Shown: piece by piece, positions 1-59,238 of the stretch
How the letters are laid out: every line of letters begins with the position of its first letter
Numbering within the stretch: the first letter of the stretch is position 1
Assembly (NCBI RefSeq): GCF_035084215.1
Contig: NC_090343.1
Span: 3,038,001 to 3,102,000, forward strand
DNA length: 64,000 nt
Direction of reading: 5' to 3'
Source: Heptranchias perlo
Lineage: Eukaryota
Translations under genes and position numbers: made by a program
The notes under the pieces: generated by a model
The model's input: the letters and a program-made list of their open reading frames with translations, nothing else
What the model was told of the DNA's origin: nothing
Databases searched by the model: none

Positions 1-740
1 TTGCCCTGGGCAGTGGGAGACCCCCCCGCTCTCTATTAGTGACCCCCCCCCCGCCGCCGCCACGGAGTGGTCCCTCTTGATGCGCGTGCACGCTCTTTGT
101 CTGCTCCCCAGCGCGCGCACGAGGCGCCGTCTCCCCCCTCGGAGAGGCCGGGCCGCCGCCACAGTGTGTAAAATAAAAAATAATTTTCTTTAAAAAAGGA
201 GGGATTAACTGTACAATCCGACCGCCAGTGATCGGAGCGGCCGAGCCCCCGGAGGAAGAAGAGAAGGAGGAGACGGCGATTGGGGGGGGGGGGGGGGGTG
301 GGGTTGGGAGGCCTACCCGGCCTGGTGCTGCCCCCGCGGCCTAGCTCCGGCTGCGAAACTCCGAGCGCCGAGGAAGAAGAAGAAAAAGAAAAGGCTTTTT
401 TTTTGGGGAGTGGGGGATATAAAAAAAAAGAATCAGCACAACATCCCGCCCGCACGGCCGCAGGAAGGTTAGTTACCGAGCCCTTACCGGTGACACGGGA
501 TAAAAGGCTAAAGACTGGGGGTGGGTCTGAGGTAACCGAGCGGACGCCCTGCTGCTCTCGCCGCTCCCGCTCGTTTTCCTCACTCGGCAATCATGGCGGC
601 GCTGCGGCCGGCTGGCCGGCGTCCTTACGTCATCGAGCTGCCCATACGTCATCGCGCTCTCCCCACCCCTCCCCTCCCCCCCCCCCCCACAGCCATGCTC
701 TTTCGGCTAGGCGTCATCCGGGAGGGTTGGCAACCCTGCA
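1..740 (-). promoter_or_regulatory. CpG island / promoter and non-coding first exon(s) of an unidentified gene running leftwards out of the window
   Basis: Very GC- and CpG-rich. Minus-strand donors CCG|GTAAGG (exon ends at 488) and CGG|GTAGGC (~317). CRE/ATF-like motifs TTACGTCA (625-632), TACGTCA (~645-651) and GGCGTCA (~710-716). Confidence 0.6.
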
Positions 741-769
741 ACAAGAGCAACAATAACTTGCATTTATGC

Positions 770-1620
770 AGCGCCTGCTTCCACCTCCATTGCATCGCCG
801 CTGAGACCCTCATCCATGTCTTTGTTTCCTCCAGACTGGACTATTTCCAATGCTCTCCTTGGCCGGCCTCCAACTTTCCACCCTCTTGAGCTCATCCAAA
901 AACTCTGCTGCCCCGTTTCCTAACTCGCGCCAATTTAAAACAGAAATAGACAGTTTCCTAGAAGTAAAGGGAATTAGGGGTTTCGGGGAGCGGGCAGGAA
1001 ATTGGACATGAAGCTGAGTTCGGATCGGTCAATGCCCTGTGGGTGGCAGAGCGGGCCCAGGGGCTGAGTGGCCGGGTCCTGCTCCTACTTCTTGTGTTCT
1101 TTAGATTTGAGGTTAGGATCAGATCAGCCCTGATCTTATTGAATGGCGGAGCAGGCTCGAGGGGCCGATTGGCCTACTCCTGCTCCTATTTCTTATGTTC
1201 TTATGTCCCGTTCACCCATCACCCCCCTGTGCTCGCTGACCTACGTTGGCTCCCGGTCCGGGAATGCTTCGATTTTAAAATTCTCATCCTTGTTTTCAAT
1301 TCGCTCCATGGCCTCGCCCCTCCCTACCTCCAGCCCTACAACCCTCCGAGATCTCTGCGCTCCTCCAAATTCTGGCCTTTTGCACATCCCCAATTTTAAT
1401 CGTTCCACGATTGGCGGCCGTGTCTTCAGCTGCCTAGGGGCCCTAAGCTCTGGAATTCCCTCCCTAAACCTCTCCGCCTCTCTCTCCTTTAAGATGCTCC
1501 TTAAAACCACCTTCTTTGACCAAGCCTGTCCTAATATCTCCTTATGTGGCTCAGTGTCAAATTGTGGTTGATAATTTTTACTACATTGAAGGCGCTATAT
1601 AAATGCAACTTGTTGTTGTT
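770..1620 (+). mobile_element. L2-type LINE 3' fragment interrupted by a CR1 3'-end insertion (~935-1205)
   Basis: L2 ORF2 C-terminal motifs (SRLDY; LRWLPV..FKIL) and 3' tail GCTATATAAATGCAA(GTT)n. The insert ends in the CR1 (TTCTTATG)n tail. Confidence 0.8.
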
Positions 1621-7390: not shown

Positions 7391-7804
7391 TTTCATGCAA
7401 GATCTCCGGGAGGACACAGACTGTAATTCAAGTTCCACACAGTATGCAGAGCTGCATTTATTTCTCAGAGTAAGGCACACAATAAAACTTAAATGTAATA
7501 AGACATACTGAATTTTTATTCAAACAAGAAATGAGCCAGGACTCATTAAACTGGCACGTGGATGCGATTTTTCAAATTGTGGAGTTTGCATATTTTCTGC
7601 AACGGAGCTTTGAGTTGCATCGATTCTCATGTTAACAGACGTTCTAGCGAGTAACTGATCAGCTTCCAGTTTCTACCTTCTCTGTTGGCTGGATGGATGC
7701 TTGAGTTTTACCATCCTACTTAACGGATAAGTATGAACGACAATTTAAAAAAAAGAGCTGAGAATCACATTAAAATATCAGGTGAGTGGACTTCTTTCTC
7801 TTGG

Positions 7805-9573: not shown

Positions 9574-9740
9574 TCAAAGATTTTCCAGAACATTCCGTAG
9601 TTGTTCAAACGATGGCCGTCTCCAAGGATGCTCCTCCCAGCACATCGACATAACACGATACACCTCCTCTGTGCACCCCACTGGACGTTGCATGCGAAGT
9701 CCACACTCCAGGAAGTCAACAGTTTGTGCAAAGGTTAGAC
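9574..9740 (-). CDS. Divergent SrcB-like kinase, last coding exon (GLTFAQTVDFLECGLRMQRPVGC...CWEEHPWRRPSFEQLRNVLENL*)
   Basis: TTTCTTTCAG acceptor. Matches tyrosine kinase subdomains X-XI (M..CW...P..RPSF). Phase matches the upstream exon. Confidence 0.88.
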
Positions 9741-9954
9741 CTGAAAGAAATGAGACATCATTGGAAGTGCAGTGAACAGTGAGGAGGATAGTGATAGACT
9801 TCAAGAGGATATAGACAGGCTGGTGGAATGGGCGGACATGTGGCAGATGAAACTTAACGCAGAGAAATGCGAAGTGATACATTTCGGGAGGAGGAGAGAG
9901 ATTTAGGGGAACATGTACAGAAATCACTAAAAGCTGGTGGACAGGTACAAAAAG

Positions 9955-10248
9955 CTGTCGGATTGTCGTAAAAACCCAACTGGTTCACTAATGTCCTTTA
10001 GGGAAGGAAACCTGCCGTCCTTACCCGGTCTGGGCCTATATGTGACTCCAGTCCCACACCAGTGTGGTTGATTTTTAACTGCCTTTTAAAGGTGGTCTAG
10101 CAGCCACTCAGTTGTATCAAAATCGCTGCACTAGGAAAATTGCAGCAGTTCAAGGTGGCAGCTCACCACCACCTTCTCAGGGCAACTAGGGATGGGCAAT
10201 AAATGCCGGCCTTGCCAGCCCATATCCCGAAAATGATTAAAGAAAAAA
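9955..10248 (+). mobile_element. SINE (partner of the 60.9-63.0 kb LINE), partial
   Basis: Shared core and GGGCAATAAATGCCGGCC tail. Confidence 0.75.
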
Positions 10249-10349
10249 ACACACAAACTTGGGCCAAAGTCGGTTCTGAGAAATCCATGTGCCAATAAAA
10301 ATTCCCATCATGACTTCACACCAAGTGATGCCAAATGAGGTCTCCTTGA

Positions 10350-11232
10350 TATATTGGGACAGACTGTCGCTGTCTGATTGACGTATTGGGACAGACCGTC
10401 GCTGTCTGATTGACGTATTGGGACAGACCGTCGCTGTCTGATTGACGTATTGGGACAGACCGTCGCTGTCTGATTGACGTATTGGGACTGACCGTCGCTG
10501 TCTGATTGACGTATTGGGACTGACCGTCGCTGTCTGATTGACGTATTGGGACTGACCGTCGCTGTCTGATTGACGTATTGGGACTGACCGTCACTGTCTG
10601 ATTGACGTATTGGGACTGACCGTCGCTGTCTGATTGACGTATTGGGACTGACCGTCGCTGTCTGATTGACGTATTGGGACTGACCGTCGCTGTCTGATTG
10701 ACGTATTGGGACTGACCGTCGCTGTCTGATTGACGTATTGGGACAGACCGTCGCTGTCTGATTGACGTATTGGGACAGACCGTCGCTGTCTGATTGACGT
10801 ATTGGGACAGACCGTCGCTGTCTGATTGACGTATTGGGACAGACCGTCGCTGTCTGATTGACGTATTGGGACAGACCGTCGCTGTCTGATTGACGTGTTG
10901 GGACTGACCGTCGCTGTCTGATTGACGTATTGGGACTGACCGTCGCTGTCTGATTGACGTATTGGGACTGACCGTCGCTGTCTGATTGATGTATTGGGAC
11001 TGACCGTCGCTGTCTGATTGATGTATTGGGACTGACCGTCGCTGTCTGATTGATGTATTGGGACTGACCGACTGTCTGATTGATGTATTGGGACTGACTG
11101 ACTCTGTCTGATTGACGTATTGGGACTGACCGTCGCTGTCTGATTGATGTATTGGGACTGACCGTCACTGTCTGATTGATATTTTGGGACTGACTCTGTC
11201 TGATTGACGTATTGGGACTGACTCTGTCTGAT
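10350..11232. repeat. 32-bp minisatellite (ACGTATTGGGAC[A/T]GACCGTCGCTGTCTGATTG)n, ~27 copies, in the last kinase intron
   Basis: Tandem repeat visible. Confidence 0.95.
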
Positions 11233-11639
11233 TCATGCAGCAATTAAATTTGTTTCCTTTTACTCCCATGAGACTTATTGATATTAATCGCTGGAAAGGT
11301 GAAGTATCTATTTCATTTCTTTCTATTGGTTCTTGGGATTTATTGCCCTGTTTGCCTTGAGTAGTTGCCACACACTGCGCCACTGATGTCACACGTAGGC
11401 CAGACTGGGTAAGGGTGTCTGGTTCCTTGTCTGCAGGACATTAGTTGGGTTTTAAACAACAAACCAGCAACTTTCATGATGATTGATCCCCAGGCCAATG
11501 AGGCCAATTGTGAAACCTACTGCTGTCCTGGTGACATCAACTAAATCCTCACAGACCAGCGTTTGAACTTGGGACCCTCCTGGTTTGTACAACTCATTCT
11601 CCTGAACTGACTATTTTGAATGGTCTCTTATGATGTCAA

Positions 11640-12000
11640 ATAAGTATGTCCATCCATACAGATTCCACATCGTGATTTTCCGAGCCAATATCCTTCCTCA
11701 CTATTGCATTGATTTCCTCCTTTACTAACAACGCTACCCCACCTCCTTTCCCTTTTTGCCTGTCCTTCCTAAATATTGAATACCCCTGGATGTTCAGTTC
11801 CCATCCTTGGTCACCCTGCAGCCATGTCTCCGTAATCGCAACTAAATCATAACAGTTAATATCTAGCTACGTTGTTAATTCATCTAGCTTATTGTGAATG
11901 CTCCCTGCATTAAGACACAATGCCTTTAGACTTGTCTTTTTAAGATTGCTAGTCATCTTCGTTTTATTTTGCACTATGGCCCTATTTGTTTTTCGCCCTT
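11640..12000 (-). mobile_element. CR1 ORF2 endonuclease-region fragment
   Basis: LKALCLNAGSIHNKLDEL...ITETW...GGGVAL motifs. Confidence 0.8.
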
Positions 12001-12169
12001 GTGTTTCTATGTATGGAGCTTTACCCAGCACCCAAGTCAATGGTTGGTGCATCGATGGCCAATGATGCGTCAGTGCTGGTTGAGGCTAACGTTGGGCTCT
12101 TGTAGGCCAGTAATTGGGAGCGCAGCATCTCCCAACTGGGAATATTAGCTCCTCGACTTAAAGGCGTCA

Positions 12170-12322
<153 letters not shown>

Positions 12323-12699
12323 TTAATATTTAAATCAGTGAGGGCCAATTGGACAGCTCGTTCAAAGAGCCAGCACAGGCACAATGGGCCGAGTGGCCTC
12401 CTTCTGTGCTGTGAGATTCTATAATTCTATGAATGGCCGCCTTGCCAGTGGATCCACGGTGTGGTGCGTTACTGAGATATATGGGGGTGGATTACGAGGC
12501 CTCCCACCTGGCAGGAATCGGGGCGGTAACACCCTGAAAATGGCGGGCAATGACCTATCGCCCGGTTGCTGTTGTCGCGGCAATGCTCCCTCCTGCCCCC
12601 ACCCCCCGCCCTCATGGGGCCTATCGCTGGCAGCCAGAGCGGCCCCTTGAGTCAAGCTGTAGGGCCCATTTAAAATGTAAATCGGGGTTCCATGAACGA

Positions 12700-13540
12700 A
12701 AGACAGACTTATATTTCTACAGCGCCTTTCACCACCTCAGGACGTCCCAAAGGGCTTTACATCCAATGAAGTACTTTTTTGAAGTGTAGTTACTGTCATG
12801 ATGTAGGAAACGCGGCAGCCAATTTATGCACAGCAAGATCCCACAAACCGCAATGAGATAATGACCAGATAATCTGTTTTTAGTGATGTTGATTGAGGGA
12901 TAACTATTGGCCCAGGACACAGGGGAGAACGCCCACCCCCCCACCCCCCTCTTCAAATAGAGGTTGTGGGATCTTTTACATCTACCCGAGAGGGCAGACA
13001 GGGCCTCGTTTTAACATCTCATTCGAAAGTCGGCACCTCCGACAGCGCAGCGCTCCCTCGGTGCTGGCCCTCCGACAGCGCAGCGCTCCCTCGGTGCTGG
13101 CCCTCCGACAGCGCAGCGCTCCCTCGGTGCTGGCCCTCCGACAGCGCAGCGCTCCCTCGGTGCTGGCCCTCCGACAGCGCAGCGCTCCCTCGGTGCTGGC
13201 CCTCCGACAGCGCAGCGCTCCCTCGGTGCTGGCCCTCCGACAGCGCAGCGCTCCCTCGGTGCTGGCCCTCCCACAGCGCAGCGCTCCCTCGGTGCTGGCC
13301 CTCCCACAGCGCAGCGCTCCCTCGGTGCTGGCCCTCCCACAGCGCAGCGCTCCCTCGGTGCTGGCCCTCCCACAGCGCAGCGCTCCCTCGGTGCTGGCCC
13401 TCCCACAGCGCAGCGCTCCCTCGGTGCTGCACTGGGAGTGTCAGCCTAGATTTTGTGCTCAAGTCTCTGGAGTGGGACTCGAACCCACGACCTTCTGATT
13501 CAAGAGGCGAGAGTGTTACCAACCGAGCCATGGCTGACAC
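12700..13540 (-). mobile_element. Deu-domain SINE with internal 33-bp minisatellite expansion (~13030-13430)
   Basis: tRNA-like head at ~13480-13540, Deu core and L2-like tail. Internal (CCGACAGCGCAGCGCTCCCTCGGTGCTGGCCCT)n, ~12 copies. Confidence 0.88.
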
Positions 13541-13917
13541 AAGTGGCTATAATTAGTGCGTGACCCCATGCACTCAATGTCAGTCGGGTATTTGACTGTG
13601 GGAGGCCTCACATCCTGCTCATGCCTTTTCTGGTCTCCACACAAGTGCACTTTCCAGCAGGCTACCTGGGCAATCAGGAGCAGGAAGCCTGGATGATTTA
13701 TTTTCCGCTCCCTAGCCCAAGGGAGCTGAGGCTAACTCCACAGGTGTACCGATACCCCGGCTGAGGTCAGGCAATTCAGCATGGAGCGGAGATGAAACCT
13801 GGACCTTCTCGATCTGCCCCCCCTCAGCTATACATTGGATACGTTTGCTAAGCCTCTTGGAAGTATTTTATTAATGTGTTTCTGCATTTTTCACTAAATA
13901 ATCTCAGCTGCACGTAC

Positions 13918-14071
13918 CTTTGAGGAGGACGTATCTGTGGCCTTCGAGTTTCTGAGTTAGGCTGAAATCTCCGATTTTGCACTCCAGTGTTTGGGTCAGA
14001 AGAATGTTGGCTGACCGTAGATCGCAATGTACGTAGCCGTTCTCTTCCATGTAAAGCATTCCATCCACAAT
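13918..14071 (-). CDS. Divergent SrcB-like kinase, 154-bp catalytic-loop exon (IVDGMLYMEENGYVHCDLRSANILLTQTLECKIGDFSLTQKLEGHRYVLLK)
   Basis: TTTTCTGCAG acceptor and GTACGT donor. HxDLRxAN and KIxDF motifs. 154 bp is the canonical Src-family size. Confidence 0.93.
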
Positions 14072-14179
14072 CTGCAGAAAAGGGACCATTATTCAACATG
14101 CTTCTGCTCCATTCTCTCCCGCAGTGTCCTCTTCAACCGGGAGCGTGCCCCTCCCCACCCAGGAATAAGAAACGTGTAC

Positions 14180-14256
14180 CTGCATTGCAAAGCCAATCAT
14201 CTGCACCAACTCCAACTGCCTGCCTAGGTCGCTCCTTAAGTAACTGTTTAAATTCC
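14180..14256 (-). CDS. Divergent SrcB-like kinase, 77-bp exon (GNLNSYLRSDLGRQLELVQMIGFAMQ)
   Basis: AG/GT boundaries, 77-bp canonical Src-family exon size and compatible phases. Confidence 0.9.
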
Positions 14257-14599
14257 CTTCAGAAAAAAGGAGATCAGTTATCACTAGAGTGCCTCGAGAC
14301 ATCATTTTCCACGTTTAAGGCGATGACTTTAGACTGAATAGCACTTGGCCCAAATCCCCCACGACCCAGTACAGAAACAAAAGACTTGCATTTATAAATC
14401 ATCTTATTGCTGCAGCACCCTCCCCCCACTGGCAGAGCCATGTAATTACAGTGTGACAAGTTTACATACGCATTTTCCATTATTAATATAGACATACAAA
14501 TTTATCATGGAAATATATAAAATTAAAGACAGAATGTATACAACTTTAAAATGGGGACTGAAAGCCGTGATCCAATTAACCCCACCCTCCTCTAACCCC

Positions 14600-14895
14600 A
14601 ATAAACCAGAGGACACAGATTTAAGGAGATTTGCAAAAGAACCAGAGGCGATATGAGGAAACATTTTTTTACACAGTGAGTTGTTATGATCTGGAATGCG
14701 CTGCCTGAAAGGGCGGTGGAAGTAGATTCAATGGTAATTTCCAAAAGGGAATTGGATAAATACTTGAAGGGAAATAATTTACAGGGCTATGGGGAAAGAG
14801 CAGGGGAGTGGGACTAATTGGATAGCTCTTTCAAAGAGCCGGCACAGGCACAATGGGCCGAATGGCTTCCTTCTGTGCTGCACCTACTACGATAC
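14600..14895 (+). mobile_element. CR1 LINE 3' fragment
   Basis: FFTQ..V..IWNALPE motif plus 3' UTR. Confidence 0.75.
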
Positions 14896-15569
14896 CTGAA
14901 GACTACATTCAGTGTTAACTCTCCGTATATAAAGCCATGGGGGATCGACTAGTAAGCAATTGTTTTTGAAGTTGGCAAAAATTCTAAAGATTAAGAAGAT
15001 GATTTTGTACTTTTAATTAGTCATTAATCTGTGAAAAAGGGGAGCTGGTTTGTCTGGGTCTAATGACCTTTCTCCTGTTCCTAAAAACCCTAAGGTTCTA
15101 ATTTATGGGCAACGGAGGAGGGGAGAGGGACAGTAGGTGAACACATTGCTCGTTCACCTCAAGGTCACAGGTTCAAATCCAGCCCAGACGGTTGTGGCAG
15201 ATGCAATCCTTCATTCCGTTAAATATAGAAGCCGAACGACCAACTTATCGACCTGGATCTTGTCGTGCTCAGTATCTGGTCCATTTCAGACTTGTGTCAG
15301 TAATTTACCTCAATATTACTGCCAGAATTCAAACTTTTTTCCTTCAGTTCCTCAACAGTGGAGATAATAACTTCCAAGGATTTTCATTGATTTACAGAAA
15401 TTAAATGCCCAACATCCTGTGCTATTGTTGTCAAGGAAATATTGGATAGAATGTTAAGTGATGATTCAGTCCTTTATAAACTGGCCACAGGTAAAGACTG
15501 TCCGGATAAAGGCCAACTGTAAGTAGACATTTAACTTCCGTGGAACTATGGAAAACCACGGAGATTTTT

Positions 15570-15900
15570 AAAAATTCATTCTGGGAATGTGGGCGTCGCT
15601 GGCAAGGCCGGCATTGATTGCCCGTCCTTAGTTGCCCCTTGAGAAGGTGGTGGTGAGCCTTCTTCTTGAACCGCTGCAGTCCGTGTGGTGAAGGTTCTCT
15701 CACTGTGCTGTTAGGGAGGGAGTTCCAGGATTTTGACCCAGCGACGATGAAGGAACGGTCGATATATGTGCAAGTCAGGATGGTGTGTGCCTTGGAGGGG
15801 AACATGCAGGTGGTGGTGTTCCCATGCAGCTGATGCCCTTGTCCTTCTAGGTGGTAGAGGTCGCAGGTTTGGGAGGTGCTGTCGGAGAAGCCTTGACGAG
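15570..15900 (-). mobile_element. 3' fragment of the LINE family seen at 60.9-63.0 kb
   Basis: KSWNSLPNSTV..PSPHGLQRFKK.AHHHLLKG motif. Confidence 0.8.
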
Positions 15901-16337
15901 TTGATGTCCATCATTGAGTTGGATTCTGTTTTTGTTTCCAGTTTTCTCCCATTTCCCATCAGACAGCACGGTCTTTTATTGGGGTTCAGTTGTATTTGTG
16001 CGGGAACCCTTTGGTACCTCACCCAATTGGCTATTCCTCATATGGAGGCCCAGAAAGTAAGCACCTGGAGACTATTCAACAATGGGGAGAGGCATCAGAC
16101 TCAAGATCGATCTGGTCATCACCTAACATCCAAACTCAAGCACTTCTAAGTGAGGATATGAACGATGATTAGCAGATCTTCCCTAACTTGAGACTGTAGA
16201 AACCAATTGCAGCTTGCTGGCTCAGCACAGGCCAGGCATAGAGCCTGCTCCAAATGGCCTAGTACCACACCAGGCAGCGCGTGTGGTACATTGACATTGG
16301 AGACTCCCAAATGACACCAGAGGGCTGCAGGAATTAC

Positions 16338-16520
16338 CTTTGCTCATGAACTCCGTGATGATGAGCATGGGCTCAGACCTTGTCACCACTCCGAGAAGCT
16401 GCACCAGTCGGTCATGTTGAAGAGTTTTCCTAATACTAACCTCCCTGAGGAAGGAGTCTACAGAGGTGCATTCCGGATTCCTCACCTTTACAGACACTTT
16501 GATACAGCTGTTATTCAAAT
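16338..16520 (-). CDS. Divergent SrcB-like kinase, 183-bp exon (DLNNSCIKVSVKVRNPECTSVDSFLREVSIRKTLQHDRLVQLLGVVTRSEPMLIITEFMSK)
   Basis: AG/GTAATT boundaries. The beta3 Lys (VSVK) and alphaC Glu (FLRE) are present. KTLQHD.LV.L..VVT..EP..IITEFM resembles Lyn/Hck. Confidence 0.92.
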
Positions 16521-16985
16521 CTAAAGAAAGAAAGACAGACTTGCATTTATATAGCAACTTTCATGACCTCAGGACGTCCCAAAGTGCTTTATAGCCAATG
16601 AAGTACTTTTGAAGTGAAGTCACTGTTGTAATGTAGGAAATGCAGCAGCCAATTTGCACACAGCAAGATCCCACAAACAGTAATATGGTAATGACCAGAT
16701 AATCTGTTTTAGTGATGTTGGTTTAGGGATAAATATCGGCCAGGACACTGGGGAGGACTTCTTCCAATAGTGCCATGGGATCTTTTACGTCCACCCGAGA
16801 GGGCAGATGGGGCCTCGGTTTAACATCACAGCCAAAAGACGGCACCTCCGACAGTGCAGCACTCCCCCAGTACGGGCACTGGGAGTGTCAGCTTGGATTT
16901 TGTGCTCAAGTCTCTGAAGTGGGACTTGAACCCACGACCTTCTGACTCAGAGGGGAGAGTGATACCACTGAGCCACGGCTGACAC
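16521..16985 (-). mobile_element. Full-length Deu-domain SINE whose 3' tail abuts the kinase exon acceptor
   Basis: Head GTGTCAGCCGTGGCTCAGTGG...GGTTCAAGTCCC and tail GCTATATAAATGCAAGTCTGTCTTTCTTTCTTTAG. Confidence 0.88.
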
Positions 16986-17504
16986 CCGCCTGACGCGTTT
17001 ATAACAGTGGGCCGGAGAAACCTCTTCACACAGAGAGCTGTGAGGCTGCGGAATTCACTTCCAGGGTTAGTGGTTGAGGAAGAAACTATGTCAACATTCA
17101 AGATTAGATTTTTTTTTTATTCGTTCATGGGATGTGGGCGTCGCTGGTGAGGCCGGCATTTATTGCCCGTCCCTAATTGCCCTTGTGAAGGTGGTGGTGA
17201 GCCGCTTTCTTAAACCGCTGCAGTCCGTGTGGTGAAGGTTCTCCCACAGTGCTGTTGGGAAGGGAGTTCCAGGATTTTGGAGAGGTGGATGAAGGAAAAG
17301 AGGTTGAACGGATACAGTAACAGAGCGGTAAATGGGATTGGAAATACTTACATGCGGGTAAACGGCAACACCGACTGGTTGGGCCAAATGGCCTGTTTCT
17401 ATGCTGCAACTTCTATGTGTAGTTAGACATTGGGCAATATGGTAAGATACGGGTACCATTCACAGGTACTGCAGGGCTGGTCATTCCTAACAGAGTAACT
17501 GAGA

Positions 17505-18150
17505 GGTACAGTAGTGTTGTGGTTATGATACAGGACTAGTAATCCAGGGAATGTGAGTTCAAATCCCACCATGGCAGTTTTGATAAAACAATAAAAAGCT
17601 AGGCTCAGTAAAAGTGACCACAAAGCTATCATAGAAGAATCATAGAAGTTACAACATGGAAACAGGCCCTTCGGCCCAACATGTCCATGTCGCCCAGTTT
17701 ATACCACTAAGCTAGTCCCAATTGCCTGCACTTGGCCCATATCCCTCTATACCCATCTTACCCATGTAACTGTCCAAATGCTTTTTAAAAGACAAAATTG
17801 TACCCGCCTCTACTACTGCCTCTGGCAGCTCGTTCCAGACACTCACCACCCTTTGAGTGAAAAAATTGCCCCTCTGGACCCTTTTGTATCTCTCACCTAT
17901 CGGATTGTCATAAAAACCCAGCTGGTTCACTGATGCTCTTTAGGGAAGGAAACCTGCCGTCCTTACTCAGTCTGGGCCTATATGGATTCCAGTCCCACAC
18001 CAACATGGTTGACTCTGAAGTGGCCTAGCAAACCACTCAATTGCATCAAACCCCCTACCATCTGTGGTTCAATAAGAAGGCCCACCACCGCCTTCTCAGG
18101 GCAATGAGGGATTGCCAGCGATGCCCACATCCAGGATTGAATTTTTAAAA
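17505..18150 (+). mobile_element. tRNA-derived SINE interrupted by a minus-strand CR1 3' fragment (~17631-17896)
   Basis: B-box GAGTTCAAATCCC. The SINE resumes after the insert, and CTATC is present on both sides. Confidence 0.75.
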
Positions 18151-18190
18151 AATCTAAGGCAAGACCCTAATCTTGTAAATCATTACGTAC

Positions 18191-18343
18191 CCATCCTCGC
18201 CTTGGCAAGATGTCCAACTTCAAGTTGGCTTTCCAGTGTAATGGACTTTCTTGGAATCTCAAAGCCATCAGCTTCCAAAATATTTTGAGTCTTCTTTTTG
18301 ATCGAGGGACTTGCCAGTCTTTGGCACAGACCATCTGCATCTT
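18191..18343 (-). CDS. Divergent SrcB-like kinase, 153-bp exon: SH2 end, linker and degenerate Gly loop (KDADGLCQRLASPSIKKKTQNILEADGFEIPRKSITLESQLEVGHLAKARM)
   Basis: CTCTTCAG acceptor and GTACGT donor. ADGLC..L..P and EIPR.SI.L motifs. Phases are compatible on both sides. Confidence 0.9.
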
Positions 18344-18504
18344 CTGAAGAGTTAGGTAGAGTTCCAACATGTTAGTTGCCTTGATCGTCCAATGCTGGGA
18401 CTCTCAGCCACCACCCACACTTCCAGATACACTAGGAAACTCCGCCTAATATTGCTCTGCAGCTCCCCCAATGGCCCAATTAGTAAATACACTGAGCAGT
18501 GTGA

Positions 18505-19722
18505 GAGCTTGGCTCAGTGGGTAGCACTCTCACCTCTGTGTCAGAAGGTCGTGGGTTCAAGTCCCACTCCAGAGACTTGAACATGCAATCTAGGCTGACA
18601 CTCCAAGTGTAACACTGAGTAAAAGTGTTAAATTGTCAGAGGTGAGATATTAAACTAAGGCCCCATCTATCTGTTCAGGTGAACGTAACAGATCCCCTGG
18701 TCCTTTGAAGAGCTGGTGTCCTGGACAATATTTATCTCTCAATCAACAGAGATTGATAGTGAGGAAGAAAACTGTAGACTGCAGGAAGATATCAATGGAC
18801 TGGTCAGGTGGGCAGAAAAGTGGCAAATGGAATTCAATCTGAAGAAGTGGGAGGTAATGCATTTGGGGAGGGCAAACAAGGCAAGGGAATACACAATAAA
18901 TGGGAGGATACTGAGAGGTGTAGAGGAACAAAATGACCTTGGAGTGCATGTCCACAGATCCCTGAAGGTAGCAGGACAGGTAGATAAGGTGGTTACTTTC
19001 CTTTATTAGCCAAGGCATAGGATATAAGAGCAGGGGGGTTATGCTGGAACTGTATAAAACACCAGTTAGGCCACAGCTAGAGTACTGTGTACAGTTCTGG
19101 TCACCACATTACCGGAAAGATGTGATTGCACTAGAGAGGGTACAGAGGAGATTTACGAGGATGTTGCCAGGACTGGAGAATTTTAGCTATGAGGAAAGAT
19201 TGGATAGGCTGGGGTTGTTTTCTTTGGAACAGAGGAGGCTGAGGGGAGATTTAATTGAGGTGTATAAAATTATGAGCTCCTAGATAGAGTGGATAGGGAG
19301 GACCTATTTCCCTTAGCAGTGAGGTCAATAACCAGGGGGTATAGATTTAAAATGTCTGGTAGAAGGATTAGAGGGGAGCTGAGGAGAAATGTTTTCACCC
19401 AGAGGGTGGTGGGGGTCTGGAACTCACTGCCTGAAAGGGTGGTAGAGGCAGAAACCCTCAACTCATTTAAAAAGTACTTGGATGCGCACCTGAAGAGCCG
19501 TAACCTACAGGGCTACGGACCAAGTGCTAGAGAGTGGGATTAGGCTGGATAGCTCTTTTATTGGCCAGCACGGACACAATGGGCCAAACGGCCTCCTTCT
19601 GTGCCGTAAATTTCTATGATTCTATGATTAACAGGTGATTTATCTCATTGCTGTTTATGGGAACTTTTTGTATCCAAGTTGGCTGCCAAAGTTTATATAA
19701 CAACAGTGACTATGCTTCAAAA
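18505..19722 (+). mobile_element. Deu-domain SINE split by a ~0.9-kb CR1 3' fragment (18745-19630)
   Basis: SINE head at 18505-18740 and continuation at 19630-19722. The insert carries CR1 RT C-terminal ORFs ([21 protein letters not shown]) and a (TTCTATGA)n tail. Confidence 0.85.
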
Positions 19723-20152
19723 GTAATAAGAGCAGGGGGAGTGGAAGTATTTGGATAGCTCTTTCAAAGAGCCAGCACAGGCACGATGGGCCGAATGGCC
19801 TACTTCTGTGCTGTATGATTCTCGAAGAAGGTGTTGGAGTCAGAAGCTCGCTCCATGAGGCCACCTAATGGCCAGAACCTGCAACTACATTGTGACAGTT
19901 GACATTGCAAAATTGAATTGAGAAATGTTGACGTAGCATTTACAATGGTAACAGAAAATCCTGACTACAGGAAGTAAGGTTTGAGGACAGGAAGTCTGTA
20001 TCCTATGCAGGATTTTTAATATAATATGTGGATTACTATTATGCTTTGGTTGATGACAGACTTTGTTCACACTTTACCACTGACAGCAATTCTGCTTAAT
20101 TCCTGCTAGCGGTTATGCCTCTTCATAAAAGGTGAAGAACACCAAGACTTAC

Positions 20153-20299
20153 TGTGGTAATACTTGACCAACTCTTGCAGGGCAATGAACTTGACTCGTG
20201 GATTGATGTAATAGCCACTGGGACTGCTCAATATTTTGTAATGCACCACTCTGACACCCAGCTTGGGATCCCAGTGCCTGACCAACAAGGCATAGCAAC
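20153..20299 (-). CDS. Divergent SrcB-like kinase, SH2 exon 2 (GCYALLVRHWDPKLGVRVVHYKILSSPSGYYINPRVKFIALQELVKYYH)
   Basis: TAG acceptor and GTAAGT donor. HYKI and GYYI.PR..F..L.ELV..Y motifs typical of the Lyn/Hck/Blk/Lck SH2 domain. Confidence 0.92.
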
Positions 20300-20394
20300 C
20301 TAATCGAACAAAAGGAAAAGAAATGTTTCAGGAGATCTGAGAAACCAAATGCGATTCTATCTGCTTCCTCTCTAAGGTCCTCAGATGCATCATC

Positions 20395-21862
20395 ACCCAC
20401 CACTGGCCAGCTCCTCGCTCACCTCACCCACCACTGGCCAGCTCCTCGCTCCCCTCACCCACCACTGGCCAGCTCCTCGCTCACCTCACCCGTCATTCCC
20501 CAGCTCCTCGCTCCCCTCACCCGTCACTCCCCAGCTCCTCGCTCCCCTCACCCGTCACTCCCCAGCTCCTCGCTCCCCTCACCCGTCACTCCCCAGCTCC
20601 TCGCTCCCCTCACCCGTCACTCCCCAGCTCCTCGCTCCCCTCACCCGTCACTCCCCAGCTCCTCGCTCCCCTCACCCGCCACTCCCCAGCTCCTCGCTCC
20701 CCTCACCCGCCACTGGCCAGCTCCTCGCTCCCCTCACCCACCACTGGCCAGCTCCTCGCTTCCCTCACCCGTCATTCCCCAGCTCCTCGCTCCCCTCACC
20801 CGTCACTACCCAGCTCCGAGCTCACCTCACCCACCACTGGCCAGCTCCTCGCTTCCCTCACCCGTCACTCCCCAGCTCCTCGCTCCCCTCACCCGTCACT
20901 CCCCAGCTCCTCGCTCCCCTCACCCACCACTAGCCAGCTCCTCGCTCCCCTCACCCGTCACTCCCCAGCTCCTCGCTCCCCTCACCCGTCACTCCCCAGC
21001 TCCTCGCTCCCCTCACCCGTCACTCCCCAGCTCCTCGCTCCCCTCACCCGTCACTCCCCAGCTCCTCGCTCCCCTCACCCGTCACTCCCCAGCTCCTCGC
21101 TCCCCTCACCCGTCACTCCCCAGCTCCTCGCTCCCCTCACCCGTCACTCCCCAGCTCCTCGCTCCCCTCACCCGTCACTCCCCAGCTCCTCGCTCCCCTC
21201 ACCCGTCACTCCCCAGCTCCTCGCTCCCCTCACCCGTCACTCCCCAGCTCCTCGCTCCCCTCACCCGCCACTGGCCAGCTCCTCGCTCCCCTCACCCGTC
21301 ACTCCCCAGCTCCTCGCTCCCCTCACCCGTCACTCCCCAGCTCCTCGCTCCCCTCACCCGCCACTGGCCAGCTCCTCGCTCCCCTCACCCGCCACTGGCC
21401 AGCTCCTCGCTCCCCTCACCCGCCACTGGCCAGCTCCTCGCTCACCTCACCCGTCACTCCCCAGCTCCTCGCTTCCCTCACCCGTCATTCCCCAGCTCCT
21501 CGCTCCCCTCACCCGTCACTACCCAGCTCCTAGCTCACCTCACCCACCACTGGCCAGCTCCTCGCTTCCCTCACCCGTCACTCCCCAGCTCCTCGCTCCC
21601 CTCACCCGTCACTCCCCAGCTCCTCGCTCCCCTCACCCACCACTGGCCAGCTCCTCGCTCCCCTCACCCGTCACTCCCCAGCTCCTCGCTCCCCTCACCA
21701 GCTCCTCGCTCCCCTCACCCGTCACACCCCAGCTCCTCGCTCCCCTCACCCGTCACTCCCCAGCTCCTCGCTCCCCTCACCCGTCACTCCCCAGCTCCTC
21801 GCTCCCCTCACCCGTCACTCCCCAGCTCCTCGCTCCCCTCACCCGTCACTCCCCAGCTCCTC
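20395..21862. repeat. 31-bp C-rich minisatellite (CCCAGCTCCTCGCTCCCCTCACCCGTCACTC)n, ~47 copies
   Basis: Tandem repeat with interspersed variant units. Confidence 0.95.
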
Positions 21863-23088
21863 GCACCGAGGGGGGGGAGGGGCGCACCGAGGGGGGGGGA
21901 GGGGCGCACCGAGGGGGGGGGAGGGGCGCACCGAGGGGGGGGGAGGGGCGCACCGAGGGGGGGGGAGGGGCGCACCGAGGGGGGGGGGAGGGGCGCACCG
22001 AGGGGGGGGGAGGGGCGCACCGAGGGGGGGGGAGGGGCGCACCGAGGGGGGGGGAGGGGCGCACCGAGGGGGGGGGAGGGGCGCACCGAGGGGGGGGGAG
22101 GGGCGCACCGAGGGGGGGGAGGGGCGCACCGAGGGGGGGGAGGGGCGCACCGAGGGGGGGGAGGGGCGCACCGAGGGGGGGGAGGGGCGCACCGAGGGGG
22201 GGGAGGGGCGCACCGAGGGGGGGGAGGGGCGCACCGAGGGGGGGGAGGGGCGCACCGAGGGGGGGGAGGGGCGCACCGAGGGGGGGGAGGGGCGCACCGA
22301 GGGGGGGGAGGGGCGCACCGAGGGGGGGGAGGGGCGCACCGAGGGGGGGGAGGGGCGCACCGAGGGGGGGGAGGGGCGCACCGAGGGGGGGGAGGGGCGC
22401 ACCGAGGGGGGGGAGGGGCGCACCGAGGGGGGGGAGGGGCGCACCGAGGGGGGGGAGGGGCGCACCGAGGGGGGGGAGGGGCGCACCGAGGGGGGGGAGG
22501 GGCGCACCGAGGGGGGGGAGGGGCGCACCGAGGGGGGGGAGGGGCGCACCGAGGGGGGGGAGGGGCGCACCGAGGGGGGGGGAGGGGCGCACCGAGGGGG
22601 GGGAGGGGCGCACCGAGGGGGGGGAGGGGCGCACCGAGGGGGGGGAGGGGCGCACCGAGGGGGGGGAGGGGCGCACCGAGGGGGGGGGAGGGGCGCACCG
22701 AGGGGGGGAGGGGCGTACCGAGGGGGGGAGGGGCGTACCGAGGGGGGGAGGGGCGTACCGAGGGGGGGAGGGGCGTACCGAGGGGGGGAGGGGCGTACCG
22801 AGGGGGGGAGGGGCGTACCGAGGGGGGGAGGGGCGTACCGAGGGGGGGGAGGGGCGTACCGAGGGGGGGAGGGGCGTACCGAGGGGGGGAGGGGCGTACC
22901 GAGGGGGGGAGGGGCGTACCGAGGGGGGGAGGGGCGTACCGAGAGGGGGAGGGGCGTACCGAGAGGGGGAGGGGCGTACCGAGGGGGGAGGGGCGTACCG
23001 AGGGGGGGAGGGGCGTACCGAGGGGGGAGGGGCTTACCGAGAGGGGGAGGGGCGTACCGAGAGGGGGAGGGGCGTACCGAGGGGGGGT
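21863..23088. repeat. G-rich 19-23-bp minisatellite (GC[G]CACCGAG6-9AGGG)n grading to GCGTACCGA units
   Basis: Tandem repeat with variable G-run length. It abuts the preceding array and the CR1 5' end. Confidence 0.95.
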
Positions 23089-23089
23089 C

Positions 23090-26000
23090 ACAGCAACAAA
23101 ACAAATCTGCAGTGTGACGTCACAGGTTAGGCAGGTCGGTGGTTGGTGGGGAGAATCTCTTCTGTTTTCTTCTTTCTTCGGACTGTGGGCTCAGTAACTT
23201 CGAGCAAAAAACTACATTTAAATATAAACTAAACTTAATTTAATAAATTAAACAAGGCCAGTACTTGGTTCAACATAAAAGTAATTTGATTGGCATTGTA
23301 GTAATGAATTAAATAAATAAAATAGTTATGACAGGGCAGGAGATGTGTTGCAGCTGCAATATGTGGGAGCGACTGGACAGTTTTGTCCAGGGCGACTACA
23401 TCTGCGGGAAGTGTCTGCAGCTCGAGGAACTTTGGCTCCGAGTCGAGGGGCTGGAGTCCGAGCTGCAGACATTGCGAGGCATCAGGGAGGGAGAAAGTTA
23501 CCTGGACACTCTGATCCAGGAGGCAGTCACACCCCTTAGACTAAATACTGTAGAATTGGCCCGTGGTCAGGGACAGGAGGCTGTGACTGGAGTGAGGCAG
23601 GTACGGGGGTCCAGGAGGGAGCATCGCAGGAGCCTCAGCCTCTGCACTTGTCCAATGGATACGAGGTTCTTGCAGCCCTTGTGGACGAGCGCAGGGACTG
23701 CAGGGAGGATGAGCAAACTGGCCACGGCACCGTGGTTCAGGGGGCCATTCAAGTGGGGGGAGTAAAAAGGAATGTGGTTGTAGTAGGCAACAGTATAGTT
23801 AGAGGGATAGACACTGTTCTCTGCAGCCAAGAGCGAGAGTCCTGAAGGCTGTGTTGCCTACCCGGTGCCAGGGTTAAGGACACCTCCTCAGGGCTGGAGA
23901 GAAACTTGGAGTGGGAGGGGGAGGATCCAGTTGTCGTGGTTCACGTAGGTACCAACGACATAGGTAGGACTAAGAAAGAGGTTCTGCTGAGGGAGTTTGA
24001 GCAGCTAGGGACTAAATTAAAAAGCAGAACCACAAAGGTGATAATCTACTGATTATTACCTAAGCCACGAGCAAATTGGCACAGGGTAAATCAGATCAGG
24101 GAGATGAATGTGTGGCTCAAAGATTGGTGTGGGAGAAGTGGGTTTCGATTCATGGGGCACTGGCACCAGTACTGGGGAAAGAGGGAGCTGTTCCGTTGGG
24201 ATGGGCTTCACCTGAACCATCCTGGGACCAGTGTTCTGGCAAACCGAATAACTAGGGCGGTAGAAAAGGCTTTAAACTAAATGGAGGGGGGGAGGGCTCA
24301 GGTGAGGCGAAGTTTAGATTGATAAAGAGAAAAGACAAGGAAGTAGTACAGGAAAGTGATGGGGGTAATGATAAACAGAGTGTGTCAGGAAGGGACAGAG
24401 CGTACAAACATAAGAGTGCACCAGCAAATGGGGCCAGGGGAGGAAAGAATGGTAAAAATGCAAAATTAAAGGTTCTTTATCTGAATGCGCGCAGCATTCG
24501 TAATAAGATAGATGAATTGACGGCACAAATAGAAACAAATGGGTATGATCTCGTGGCCATTACAGAGACGTGATTGCAAGGTGACCAAGGTTGGGAGCTA
24601 AATATTCAGGGTTATTTAACATTTCGGAAGGATAGGAAAAAAGGCAAAGGTGGTGGGGTAGCTCTGTTAATAAAGGATGAAATTGGTATAATAGTGAGAA
24701 ATGATCTTGGCTCAGAAGATCAAGATGTCGAATCAATTTGGGTGGAGGTAAGAAATAGCAAGGGAAAGAAATCACTGGTGGGAGTAGTACATAGGTCCCC
24801 TAACAGTAGCTACACTGTAGGGCAATATATAAATCAGGAAATAAGGGGGGCTTGTAAAAAAGGTAATGCAATAATCATGGGCAATTTTAACTTTCACATA
24901 GATTAGACAAATCAAATTGGCAAAAATAGCCCTGAGGAGGAGTTCATAGAGTGTATTAGGGACTGTTTCTTAGACCAATACATTGGGGAACCAACCAGGG
25001 AACAGGCCATTTTGGATCTGGTAATGGGTAACGAAACAGGATTAATTAATGATCTCAAAGTAAAGGATCCCTTGGGAAGCAGTGATCATAACATGATAGA
25101 ATTTCACATCCAGTTTGAGAGCGAGGATCTTGGGTCTGAAACTACTGTATTAAACTTAAATAAGGGCAATTATAAAGGAATGAGGGCGGAATTGGCTAAA
25201 GTGGACTGGGTAAACAGATTAGATGGTATGATGGTAGATAAGCAGTGGCAAACATTTAAAAAGATATTTTATGACTTGCAACAAAAATATATCCCTGTGA
25301 GGAGGAAAGATTCCACAAAAAGGGTGAACCAACCATGGCTAACTAAGGAAGTCAAGGATGGTATCAGGTTAAAAGAAAAAGCATACAACATGGCAAAGAT
25401 TATGAAAACTTTAAAAACCAGCAAAGGATGACTAAAAGAATAATAAAGAGGGAGAAAATAAATTATGAGAGTAAACTAGCAAGAAATATAAAAACTGACA
25501 GTAAAAGCTTCTACAAGTATATAAAAAGGAAGAGGGTAGCTAAAGTAAACATTGGTCCCTTAGAGGATGAGACTGGGGAAATAATAATGGAAAACAAGGA
25601 AATGGCAGAGGAATTGAACAGATATTTTGTATCTGTCTTCACAGTAGAAGACACTAATAATATACCAATAATAGTAGAAAATCAAGGGGCAAAGGGGAGG
25701 GAGGAACTAAAAACAATCACTATCACTAGAGAAAATGTACTAGGTAAATTAATGGGTCTAAAGGCTGACAAGCCCCCTGGACCTGATGGCTTGCATCCGA
25801 GGGTCTTAAAGGAAGTGGCTACAGAGATAGTGGATGCATTGGTTGTAATCTTCCAGAATTCACTAGATTCTGGAAAGCTCCCAGCGGATTGGAAAACCGC
25901 AAACATAACACCCCTATTCAAGAAGGGACTGAGACAGAAAGCAGGTAACTATAGACCAGTTAGCCTAACATCTGTCATTGGGAAAATGCTAGAATCCATT

Positions 26001-27340
26001 ATTAAGGAAGTAGTAGCAGGACATTTGGAGACTCATCATACAATCAAGGAGAGTCAACATGGTTTTATGAAGGGGAAATCGTGTCTGACAAATTTATTAG
26101 AGTTCTTTGAGGAAGTAACGGGCAGGGTGGATAAAGGGGAACTAATGCATGCAGTATATTTGGATTTCCAAAAGGCATTTGATAAGGTGCCACATAAAAG
26201 ATCACTGCACAAGATAAGAGCTCATGGTGTTGGGGGTAATATACTGGCATGGATAGAGGATTGGCTAACTAACAGAAAACAAAGAGTCGGGATAAAGGTC
26301 ATTTTCAAAATGGCAATCTTTAACTAGTGGGGTGCCGCAGGGATCAGTGCTGGGGCCTCAACTATTTACAATATATATCAATGACTTGGATGAAGGAACA
26401 GAGTGTCTTGTGGCCAAATTTGCTGATGATACAAAGATAGGTGGAAAAGCAAGTTGCGATGAGGACACAAAGTGTCTGCAAAGGGATATTGACAGGTTAA
26501 GTGAATGGGCAAAAATCTGGCAGATGGAATATAATGTGGGAAAATGTGAAGTCATCCACTTTGGGAGGAAAAATAAAAAAGCAAAATATTATTTGAATGG
26601 AGAAATACTACAGAATGCTGCGGTACAGAGGGATCTGGGTGTCCTCGTACATGAAACACAAAAAGTCAACATACAGGTGCAGCAGGTAATCCGGAAGGCA
26701 AACGGAATATTGGCCTTTATTTCGAGGGGGATGGAGTATAAAAGCTGGGAAGTCATGCTACAACTGTACAGGGTGCTGGTGAGACCACACCTGGAGTACT
26801 GCGTACAGTTCTGGTGCCCTTATTTAAGGAAGGATATACTTGCATTGGAGGCAGTTCAGAGAAGGTTCACTAGGTTGATTCCGGGTATGGGAGGGTTGTC
26901 TTATGAGGAAAGATTGAACAGGTTGGGTCTATACTCATTGGAGTTTAGAAGAATGAGAGGAGATCTTATTGAAACATACAAGATTCTGAGGGGAGATGCT
27001 GAGAGGATGTTACCCCTCATGGGGGAATCTAAAACTAGGGGGCATAGTCTCAGACTAAGGGGTCGCCCATTTAAGACAGAAATGAGGAGGAATTTCTTCT
27101 CCCAGAGGGTCGTGAATCTTTGGAATTCTTTACCCCAAAAAGCTGTGGAGGCTGAGTCATTGAATACATTCAAGGCTGAGTTCGACAAATTTTGATCAGC
27201 GAGGGAGTCAAAGGATAAGGGGAAAGGGCGGGAAAGTGGAGTTGAGGTAAAAATCAGATCAGCCATGATCTCATTAAATGGCGGAGCAGGCTCGAGGGGC
27301 CGAATGGCCTGCTCCTGCTCCTATCTCTTATGGTCTTATT
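23090..27340 (+). mobile_element. Near-full-length decayed CR1 LINE: ORF1 (zinc finger/leucine zipper + SGNH esterase, ~23328-24279) and ORF2 (APE endonuclease + RT, ~24280-27195), with stops and frameshifts
   Basis: CCSC..YICGKC; VVVGNSIVRG, HVGTND, DGLHLN; LNARSIRNK, ITET, SDHN; PGPDG, NYRPVSLTS, YLDFQKAFDKV, PQGSVLGP, KFADDTK; 3' UTR tail. Confidence 0.95.
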
Positions 27341-27910
27341 ATTTATATAGCGCCTTTAACATATAAAGACATCCCAAGGTGCATCACGGAGATGTAATCA
27401 GATAAAAATGGTTACCAAGCTAAAGGAGGAGATATTAGGAGGGATTGGTCAAAGAGCTGGGTTTTAAGAAGGGTCTTAAAGGAGGTGAGAGAGGCGGAGA
27501 GGTTTAGGAAGGGAATTCTGGAGCGTATGTCCTAGACAGCTGAAGGCACGGCCACCAATGGTGGGACGAAGCAAGGGGTAAGCACAAGTAGTCATAATTG
27601 GAGGGGAGAACGAAGAGTTCGGGGGTGGGAGGAGGTTACAGAGATAGGGAGGGGCGAGGGCCATGGAGGGATCTGAAAACAAGGGTGAGAATTTTAAAAT
27701 CGAGGCGTTGCCAGACTGGGAGCCAATGTCGGTCAGCGCACACAGGGGTGATGGGTGAACGGGACTTGGTCCGAGTTAGGATACGGGCAGCAGAGTTTTG
27801 GATGAGCTGAAGTTTATGGAGGGTGGAGGAAACGTGCAAGTGGTCTACAGACTGGAATGTTCCTGCACCTTCGCACATCTGCAGAGGTGAGACCAGAAGC
27901 CTAGCTTGCA
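27340..27910 (-). mobile_element. L2 3' fragment with a non-L2 5' extension
   Basis: LQLIQNSAARILT..., HWLPVWQRLDFKIL, RAFSCLG..L.NSLP motifs. Confidence 0.8.
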
Positions 27911-28086
27911 GGGGATCATAGATATACTGTCACTCTGTCACAGTGAGTAAGTGCCACCCACTATACTGAGGTGCAAGGCCACGTAGGGATTTAAACAGGT
28001 TCTGTCCATCCCTACGCTCTTGTCTCCTACAGCTTTCTAGGTCATGTTCACACGGTTTAATCGGAGATTGAAAACTCGATGCTGAC

Positions 28087-28190
28087 CTTTTCTTGTCCGA
28101 CTCTCTCTGATCAGGAAGGATCCCACTTTATTTTCTGGTTGCAGAATTGTTCTCTGTGCTTCTTTGCCACTTATTGCTTCAAAGAACCAT
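28087..28190 (-). CDS. Divergent SrcB-like kinase, SH2 exon 1, 104 bp (WFFEAISGKEAQRTILQPENKVGSFLIRESRTRK)
   Basis: TTTTCTCACAG acceptor and GTCAGC donor. WFF and GSFLIRES motifs. 104 bp is the canonical Src-family size. Confidence 0.92.
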
Positions 28191-31372: not shown

Positions 31373-31967
31373 GCGCGGGCTCCGGGCTCCCCGTCTGCGG
31401 AGGGCGGGCTCCGGGCTCCCCGTCTGCGGAGGGCGGGCTCCGGGCTCCCCGTCTGCGGAGGGCGGGCTCCGGGCTCCCCGTCTGCGGAGGGCGGGCTCCG
31501 GGCTCCCCGTCTGCGGAGGGCGGGCTCCGGGCTCCCCGTCTGCGGAGGGCGGGCTCCGGGCTCCCCGTCTGCGGAGGGCGGGCTCCGGGCTCCCCGTCTG
31601 CGGAGGGCGGGCTCCGGGCTCCCCGTCTGCGGAGGGCGGGCTCCGGGCTCCCCGTCTGCGGAGGGCGGGCTCCGGGCTCCCCGTCTGCGGAGGGCGGGCT
31701 CCGGGCTCCCCGTCTGCGGAGGGCGGGCTCCGGGCTCCCCGTCTGCGGAGGGCGGGCTCCGGGCTCCCCGTCTGCGGAGGGCGGGCTCCGGGCTCCCCGT
31801 CTGCGGAGGGCGGGCTCCGGGCTCCCCGTCTGCGGAGGGCGGGCTCCGGGCTCCCCGTCTGCGGAGGGCGGGCTCCGGGCTCCCCGTCTGCGGAGGGCGG
31901 GCTCCGGGCTCCCCGTCTGCGGAGGGCGGGCTCCGGGCTCCCCGTCTGCGGAGGGCGGGCTCCGGGC
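31373..31967. repeat. 29-bp GC-rich minisatellite (GGGCTCCGGGCTCCCCGTCTGCGGAGGGC)n, ~20 near-identical copies, preceded by a (GT)n-like tract (31230-31372)
   Basis: Tandem repeat visible. Confidence 0.95.
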
Positions 31968-32244
31968 ACTCTATTCGCCTGGATACCCTGCCAGGACCCC
32001 TTGTGCCAACGGCAGAGTACGACACACAAAATGCCAGCTCCAAACTTGTTTTCACCAAACCCTAAACATTTTCCCAACTAGGAACATAGGTAGGCCATTC
32101 AGCCCCTCGAGCCTTTCTGCTACGAACAAGACGGAAAAAAAACACAGTTCTTTTACTAATGGGGTGGGTGGGGGGAGAGGGAGGGAAGAAAGGAGGGAGG
32201 GAGGGAGGAGGGAAGGAAGAAAGGGAAAAAGGGAGGGAAGAAAA

Positions 32245-41285: not shown

Positions 41286-41673
41286 CCAATCATCGTTGCT
41301 GGGATAGAGGAACGACTGGACAAAGAGATGTACAATGTACAAATTCAGTAATAAACCAATTATAACAAAACTTATTTGTTTTAAAATACAAAACCACAAA
41401 TCTGGGTACCCTGTCCCTTTGGCGGTTCCTCTGAAGGACACCCAGTGGGACGTAGGTGGGACACGACTCTCTCACACCACTGGAGAGAGGTGCAGAGTGT
41501 GCACGATACACATTGTGCAGGCAGGGTGACATGTTCAGCCATTGCTAAGAGCTCCAGTTTCTCCTGCGGAGGAAGGTGACTGAGGAAGGTTAGGATTTCA
41601 ATCACAGAGTTTAAACTTTAGCAGGAGACGTTAGCCCCCAAGGAAGGAACTCTGCTAGGTCACAACTCGGTAC

Positions 41674-57921: not shown

Positions 57922-59238
<1,317 letters not shown>

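Follow-up and report, generated by a model that had tools for sequence, protein, structure and literature searches.

The 64,000-nucleotide stretch of the Heptranchias perlo genome analysed here (contig NC_090343.1, positions 3,038,001 to 3,102,000; hereafter the window) carries on its minus strand a Src-type gene with an open reading frame and degenerate catalytic motifs. This raises the question of whether the gene encodes an enzyme, is decaying, or serves a purpose other than catalysis. We consider it probable, judging from comparisons at the protein level, that it encodes a conserved, catalytically impaired SH2-pseudokinase adaptor derived from a gene of HCK/LYN type, a kind of signalling enzyme of immune cells.

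Splicing by coordinates gave 371 stop-free codons from eight exons of 104, 147, 153, 183, 77, 154, 132 and 167 nt (the last including the stop codon), with GT-AG borders at 7/7 introns and matching phases. Two RefSeq models of this gene (P0001, XP_067856279.1; P0023, XP_067856280.1), labelled as 'HCK-like' isoforms X2 and X3, agree with these exons in every letter, each model leaving out one exon, and the exon set is therefore not a product of chance. Both models start in an additional upstream linker exon (30108-30019, 90 nt, phase 2-2) that is 55% identical to the corresponding exon of Heterodontus and Pristiophorus; its likely start codon (30062-30060) adds 15 residues, for a total of 386 aa. 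A preliminary description of the locus had listed the eight exons with their sizes, splice sites, phases and 371-aa frame, all of which were reproduced; it had overlooked the linker exon and a broken SH3 exon (31142-31015).

Read in the direction of transcription, the SH2 domain begins in exon 28190-28087, which was assigned by splicing, Pfam and alignment and in which the alphaA2 Arg is replaced by Gly and the betaB5 Arg and betaB7 Ser are retained. Its second half lies in exon 20299-20153 (147 nt; splicing and alignment), one codon less than in HCK. Exon 18343-18191, which is omitted in several isoform models, encodes the SH2-kinase linker with Phe in place of Trp (FEIPR) and a degenerate Gly loop (LEVGHLAKARM). 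The N-lobe follows in exon 16520-16338 with VSVK (Ala to Ser, Lys retained), the alphaC Glu and gatekeeper Thr retained and the spine Met changed to Arg; the 77-nt exon 14256-14180, assigned by splicing, covers helices D-E. Exon 14071-13918 holds the catalytic loop, which reads HCD (Cys codon 14026-14024), the sequence DFS (from 13969) and an activation loop with its Tyr. The P+1 loop (Pro to Ala), APE and helix F are encoded by exon 12306-12175 (splicing and alignment), the best conserved of all with 86-93% identity to other sharks, and the last coding exon (9740-9574) ends right after helix I without the regulatory tail Tyr. Candidate polyadenylation signals AATAAA at 7520 and 7462 (minus strand) are the sole two in the 2.5 kb that follow the stop codon. 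The motifs just given, together with the beta3 Lys, alphaC Glu, catalytic Asp and Asn and activation-loop Tyr, had been read correctly before, and what had escaped notice is the missing tail Tyr along with further lost residues. Models from several species repeatedly skip whole exons in frame, among them those for the Gly loop and for Lys/alphaC; isoform models of this kind usually rest on transcripts.

Orthologues were found by profile search and cluster membership in 13 shark species, which span six orders, and in the chimaera Callorhinchus milii. The best 120 of 1189 profile matches comprised 22 shark family models, one two-kinase Brk-like model, one Callorhinchus protein and 96 canonical kinases; among them the Callorhinchus protein (473 bits, 56%) scored above canonical HCK, LYN, LCK and BLK (at most 428 bits, 42-47%). 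A word search with one exon returned 11 matches from 17 candidates, all of them shark proteins. No ray, skate or bony-vertebrate orthologue appeared among these 11 matches, the best 120 of 1189 profile matches or the best 150 representatives, and an Atlas search gave generic SH2-kinase clusters only. A control word search of the same kind did find rays for another kinase, and the gene was likely lost in rays.

To separate family features from individual ones, 14 family rows were compared with 99 canonical SrcB rows; every position referred to as changed is invariant in 99/99 of the latter, and motif labels follow general knowledge of Src structure. Changed in 14/14 are the SH2 alphaA2 Arg, the alphaC spine Met (Arg), the DFG Gly (Ser), the P+1 Pro (Ala) and the beta3 Ala, which is Ser in 11, Leu in two and Phe in one, namely Callorhinchus. 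The C-terminal Csk-site Tyr, typical of the SrcB tail, is absent in 14/14 (the end of the Rhincodon model is aberrant), and linker Trp and beta2 Val are changed in 13/13 models holding that exon. Sharks alone have lost the first Gly of the Gly loop (12/12) and the third (11/12); the chimaera alone shows beta3 Lys replaced by Arg and DFG reading GLS, and it retains GxGxxG and SH3. DFS, the loss of the linker Trp and, in sharks, the loss of the Gly loop can hence be regarded as family features; HCD, one of the key motifs of the preliminary description, cannot, being found in the window species only (1/14, read from assembly letters). Retained in 14/14 are the SH2 betaB5 Arg, as expected of SrcB, the alphaC Glu, the catalytic His, Asp, Arg and Asn, the APE Glu and the helix F Asp.

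From which Src-family lineage does the gene stem? A tree of 50 rows and 384 columns unites the 14 orthologues in a single clade (100/100) with Callorhinchus as its first branch; its stem measures 1.2 changes per site, and the clade groups with HCK and LYN (73/92). A 24-row subset placed it with HCK (87/75) and with HCK plus LYN (88/89); joining to LYN was not rejected (p-AU, approximately unbiased test, 0.22), joining to SrcA was rejected marginally (p-AU 0.043), and the tree tool warned of long branches. The length of the beta4-beta5 segment matches LYN (8/8) and the non-mammalian HCK sequences scored (5/5) and none of LCK (0/6), BLK (0/6) or SrcA (0/3). The exon structure is of Src type, and the sizes 104/153/183 equal those of the genome's own HCK gene. 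Because placement on the HCK/LYN branch of SrcB, with moderate support, beta4-beta5 length and exon sizes agree, we infer a duplicate of HCK (or of an HCK/LYN precursor), probably generated on the same chromosome, that would have arisen in the cartilaginous-fish stem before the shark/chimaera split. Derivation from a SrcA, Brk/Frk or SLA-lineage gene would fit the long stem (0.9-1.2 changes per site) with its long-branch warning, the unstarred HCK/LYN placement (73/92, 88/89) and the name Yes-like that RefSeq gives to the chimaera protein. Yet the marginal rejection of SrcA, the LYN/HCK-like beta4-beta5 length and the exon sizes shared with the resident HCK speak against it, as does the presence of separate, less similar SLA2-like and SLA-like genes, and we regard such an origin as highly improbable. 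Two specific candidates were rejected. Orthology to PTK6/SRMS (Brk/Frk/SRMS), suggested by the neighbouring EEF1A gene, was ruled out by exon structure, the tree and separate loci at 22.35-22.41 Mb, and orthology to SLA/SLA2 by the presence of a kinase fold and by the SLA2-like and SLA-like loci elsewhere.

The kinase exons match their own locus once in the genome, that is, the gene is single-copy. Its best paralogue lies at 20.66-20.69 Mb of the same contig, with a catalytic exon 94% identical to chimaera HCK, so the window gene is additional to HCK on that contig, and the extra SrcB-type paralogue postulated before is supported, with HCK/LYN as its nearest relatives. Eight further loci match the N-lobe exon strongly and are read as the canonical Src-family set; exons were inspected for six of the eight, which are HCK, SRC-like, YES-like, BLK-like, LCK-like and FGR/YRK-like.

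Scored against an SH3 profile, segment 31142-31015 ranks first (E 2.8e-5) among 3106 six-frame window segments, the runner-up reaching 0.41. It reads as the second half of an SH3 domain (WW...EGFI), breaks frame near 31087 and aligns with the intact SH3-linker region of Callorhinchus; with 128 nt it is one base short of the symmetric 129, and a stop codon arises at the junction from its final two bases together with the next exon. The exon now probably serves as a 5' leader with short upstream open reading frames (ORFs). A 708-nt contig of DNA run X1, possibly from the genome's own sample, spans the break with 0 differences, and the break is therefore no assembly slip. In Pristiophorus, the model translates this exon in its shifted frame (E 8e-4), which suggests, as far as protein-level comparison goes, an old frameshift common to both sharks. 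The junction stop, and the absence of the upstream Met found in other sharks, are private to H. perlo. No exon for the first half of SH3 turned up in the window, where the SH3 profile gave one significant match among the 3106 segments; a separate search gave no match at this locus either, and the 20-aa SH3 piece on its own matched no Pfam family. None of the 7/7 shark models scanned has a Pfam SH3 domain, which is intact in Callorhinchus, and the Met-Gly myristoylation start occurs in no model except one aberrant Pristiophorus isoform (N-termini are predicted). Judged by its sequence, the gene is a SrcB descendant that has shed the defining SH3, tail and myristoylation features. In the Callorhinchus orthologue (P0129), the SH3-SH2 linker exon appears tandemly duplicated at residues about 90-145.

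Is such a gene merely in slow decay? Transcribed, of little function, and open because sharks evolve slowly and open frames are what annotation picks up: such a gene would account for the SH3 frameshift, the junction stop, the lost upstream start and HCD in the window species, as well as for the many exon-skipping models, the long branches and the missing ray or skate orthologue. On the other hand, the SH2-kinase frames are open in 14 species, including the chimaera. Neutral evolution along the shark tree should have produced about 25 stop codons in these frames, and 0 were seen; the estimate is rough and the models are biased toward open frames. Conservation moreover tracks the fold. Among 368 sites in 12 sharks (Rhincodon was left out for its aberrant C-terminus), 182 are invariant, namely 109/168 of the canonically conserved sites versus 73/200 of the others (odds ratio 3.2, p 7.8e-8); 27 canonically conserved sites are fixed at a new residue, many of them in the activation and P+1 loops. 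The disabled frames and neutral decay in relatives that mark a pseudogene are thus not seen, and we consider slow decay improbable. The recent inactivation that the preliminary description had entertained is not supported, given the open orthologues in 13 sharks and the chimaera and conservation that follows the kinase fold.

Two runs from this organism that are presumed to be RNA gave contigs over the three 5' exons (X5 at a depth of about 160-400, X20 at about 11-27) and zero depth in three unique intron bins for which the DNA run has coverage; these data concern coverage of exons and introns. A Heterodontus model folded from a 141-row alignment reached a predicted local distance difference test score (pLDDT) of 88 with HCK as best fold match; this alignment is dominated by active kinases, and an 8-sequence alignment gave pLDDT 35. 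The model is best taken as a plausible fold that carries no information on activity.

We thus return to the SH2-pseudokinase adaptor. Before the shark/chimaera split, changes affected the residues on either side of the adenine, the regulatory spine, the hinge of the DFG motif and the seat of the tyrosine substrate, and the tail Tyr and linker Trp, which enforce autoinhibition, were lost as well. Later, sharks lost the Gly loop and SH3, and the chimaera the beta3 Lys and DFG Asp; such different losses per lineage are to be expected if catalysis was already dispensable. The Ala to Phe exchange at beta3 in Callorhinchus is the substitution that, when engineered, abolished PKC and Akt activity according to PMC12721161, and we count it in favour of impaired catalysis. 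The protein would bind ATP poorly or unproductively, with little or no phosphorylation, would stand outside Csk/SH3 control and, given the lack of a Met-Gly start, would not be myristoylated. Its SH2 domain, with the betaB5 Arg retained, is predicted to dock on phosphotyrosine sites, and the conserved C-lobe and rebuilt activation loop may form a protein-binding surface. Most likely, if more speculatively, it would act like SLA and SLA2 as an adaptor or competitive damper that tunes Src-family (HCK/LYN) signalling.

Several observations weigh against this interpretation. The beta3 Lys, alphaC Glu, catalytic Asp and Asn and DF Asp are retained in 13/13 sharks, HRD in 12/13 and the activation-loop Tyr in 13/14 species. 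If a pseudokinase is defined by loss of the beta3 Lys, HRD Asp or DFG Asp, as in PMC4718504, 13/13 sharks, the window species included, fall outside the definition, and Callorhinchus (Lys to Arg, GLS) falls within it; the same text holds that nucleotide binding is not reliably predicted from sequence. Ala or Gly at the beta2 position lies within the kinome consensus, as stated in PMC7586955. In the 50-row tree the family's rate of evolution is several times that of LYN, the Callorhinchus evidence comes from a 26-kb scaffold of one assembly, and the window species bears extra damage in the form of HCD, the lost upstream start and the junction stop.

Accordingly one may ask whether the shark proteins are weak or specialised kinases, freed from SH3 and tail control and with a remodelled ATP/substrate site, the chimaera copy alone being dead. 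The invariance of the five catalytic residues in all sharks, the gatekeeper Thr in 12/13, the conservation of the catalytic and P+1 exons above all others (74-93% identity) and the predicted intact fold would all suit an enzyme. With about half of all sites shark-invariant (182/368), however, five invariant sites are modest evidence, and the dead-looking chimaera copy already has three of the sharks' changes, namely Arg for the spine Met, Ala for the P+1 Pro and Ser for the DFG Gly. The sharks have furthermore lost the Gly loop, and a kept triad is no guarantee of activity since ROR1/2 are pseudokinases despite retaining Lys and both Asp, as described in PMC13259870. We therefore hold a residual kinase to be unlikely, while taking it seriously. 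The low-activity kinase or scaffold proposed in the preliminary description stands in so far as inference can carry it, given that sharks retain the Lys/Asp/Asp triad.

The surroundings of the gene include several further features. Directly upstream of the kinase and on the same strand lies an MRGBP/Eaf7 gene (window 51343-38365, minus strand), one exon of which matches Pfam Eaf7. Beyond it, an EF-Tu-type EEF1A gene occupies more than 20 kb from window position 58042 onward (plus strand); the translation of its first 47 codons is the same at four genomic sites. It is followed by an exon (G000:C22:3141576-3141440, minus strand) that we take to be DENND3-like. Downstream of the kinase, window positions 1-800 form a CpG-rich, promoter-like stretch, and 22 kb further lies a single-exon 837-aa ORF (L003:5915-8428, minus strand), presumably RBM12. 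Nearly full-length CR1-type long interspersed nuclear elements with broken frames occupy 24256-27200 (plus strand) in kinase intron 1 and about 45900-49250 (minus strand) in MRGBP, and long GC-rich intronic tandem repeats create spurious long ORFs at 10360-11230, 13040-13430, 20400-23100, 31380-31980 and 40260-41300. Two Brk-type kinases lie together with PPDPF at G000:C22:22.35-22.47 Mb, 19 Mb from the window, and Scyliorhinus torazame model P0030 seems to be a fusion of both. A Frk/Src42A-type kinase (P0304) is arranged tail to tail with a BLK-like gene (G000:C5:61,020,000-61,060,000). The shark and ray orthologues inspected read FLVW in the SH2 domain, with Trp at the betaB5 position where Arg would bind phosphotyrosine, and the kinase motifs look intact; with an altered SH2 and seemingly intact kinase motifs it is the mirror image of the window gene.

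To our knowledge, none of the eight vertebrate Src-family kinases is a pseudokinase, and the eight are regarded as a closed set of active enzymes. The window gene would be a ninth member, one that six shark orders and a chimaera have preserved with its off-switch and a large part of its active site gone. RefSeq and UniProt hold the family under the automatic names HCK-like, Lyn-like and Yes-like, so that the databases mislabel the gene as an ordinary HCK-like or Yes-like kinase. We found no published description in the full-text literature, most subscription papers and supplements lying outside its scope, and a tree-of-life pseudokinase survey might list the family. The accessible parts of two tyrosine-kinase surveys (PMC8662651, PMC5630953) make no mention of sharks, and those of PMC7249569, which used the elephant shark, do not note the gene. 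That the gene is a naturally occurring pseudokinase, the first in the Src family, which cartilaginous fishes made from a duplicate of HCK as an SH2-pseudokinase adaptor some 400 million years ago and whose active site then came apart in complementary ways in sharks and chimaeras, we put at slightly short of an even chance. Were it so, the family would offer a natural experiment on kinase-independent functions of HCK and LYN and on the change from enzyme to adaptor.

How does the gene compare with known systems? With HCK and LYN it shares the exon-intron pattern, the SH2-linker-kinase order, about 45% identity and, with HCK, the contig; they are also its best matches in sequence and fold (HCK 1qcf, E 9e-112; 9byj). 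Unlike them it lacks the tail Tyr, linker Trp and Met-Gly start, has lost SH3 in sharks, and belongs to a family with altered Gly loop, spines, DFG and P+1 loop on a stem branch more than 5 times longer. ROR1, ROR2, RYK and PTK7 are likewise tyrosine-kinase folds in which an altered Gly loop or DFG goes along with absent activity, and RYK, like ROR1/2, retains Lys and both Asp (PMC13259870). They are, however, receptors of another lineage with structurally demonstrated occluded pockets, whereas the window protein is cytoplasmic, carries SH2 and is known from sequence. The Src-like adaptors SLA and SLA2 resemble it as modules derived from the Src family that act without catalysis; they keep SH3-SH2 without a kinase domain, whereas the window gene keeps SH2 and the kinase fold. 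It is tempting to speculate that it represents a surviving transitional form, halfway from a Src kinase to an SLA-type adaptor without a kinase domain, in the oldest jawed-vertebrate immune system.

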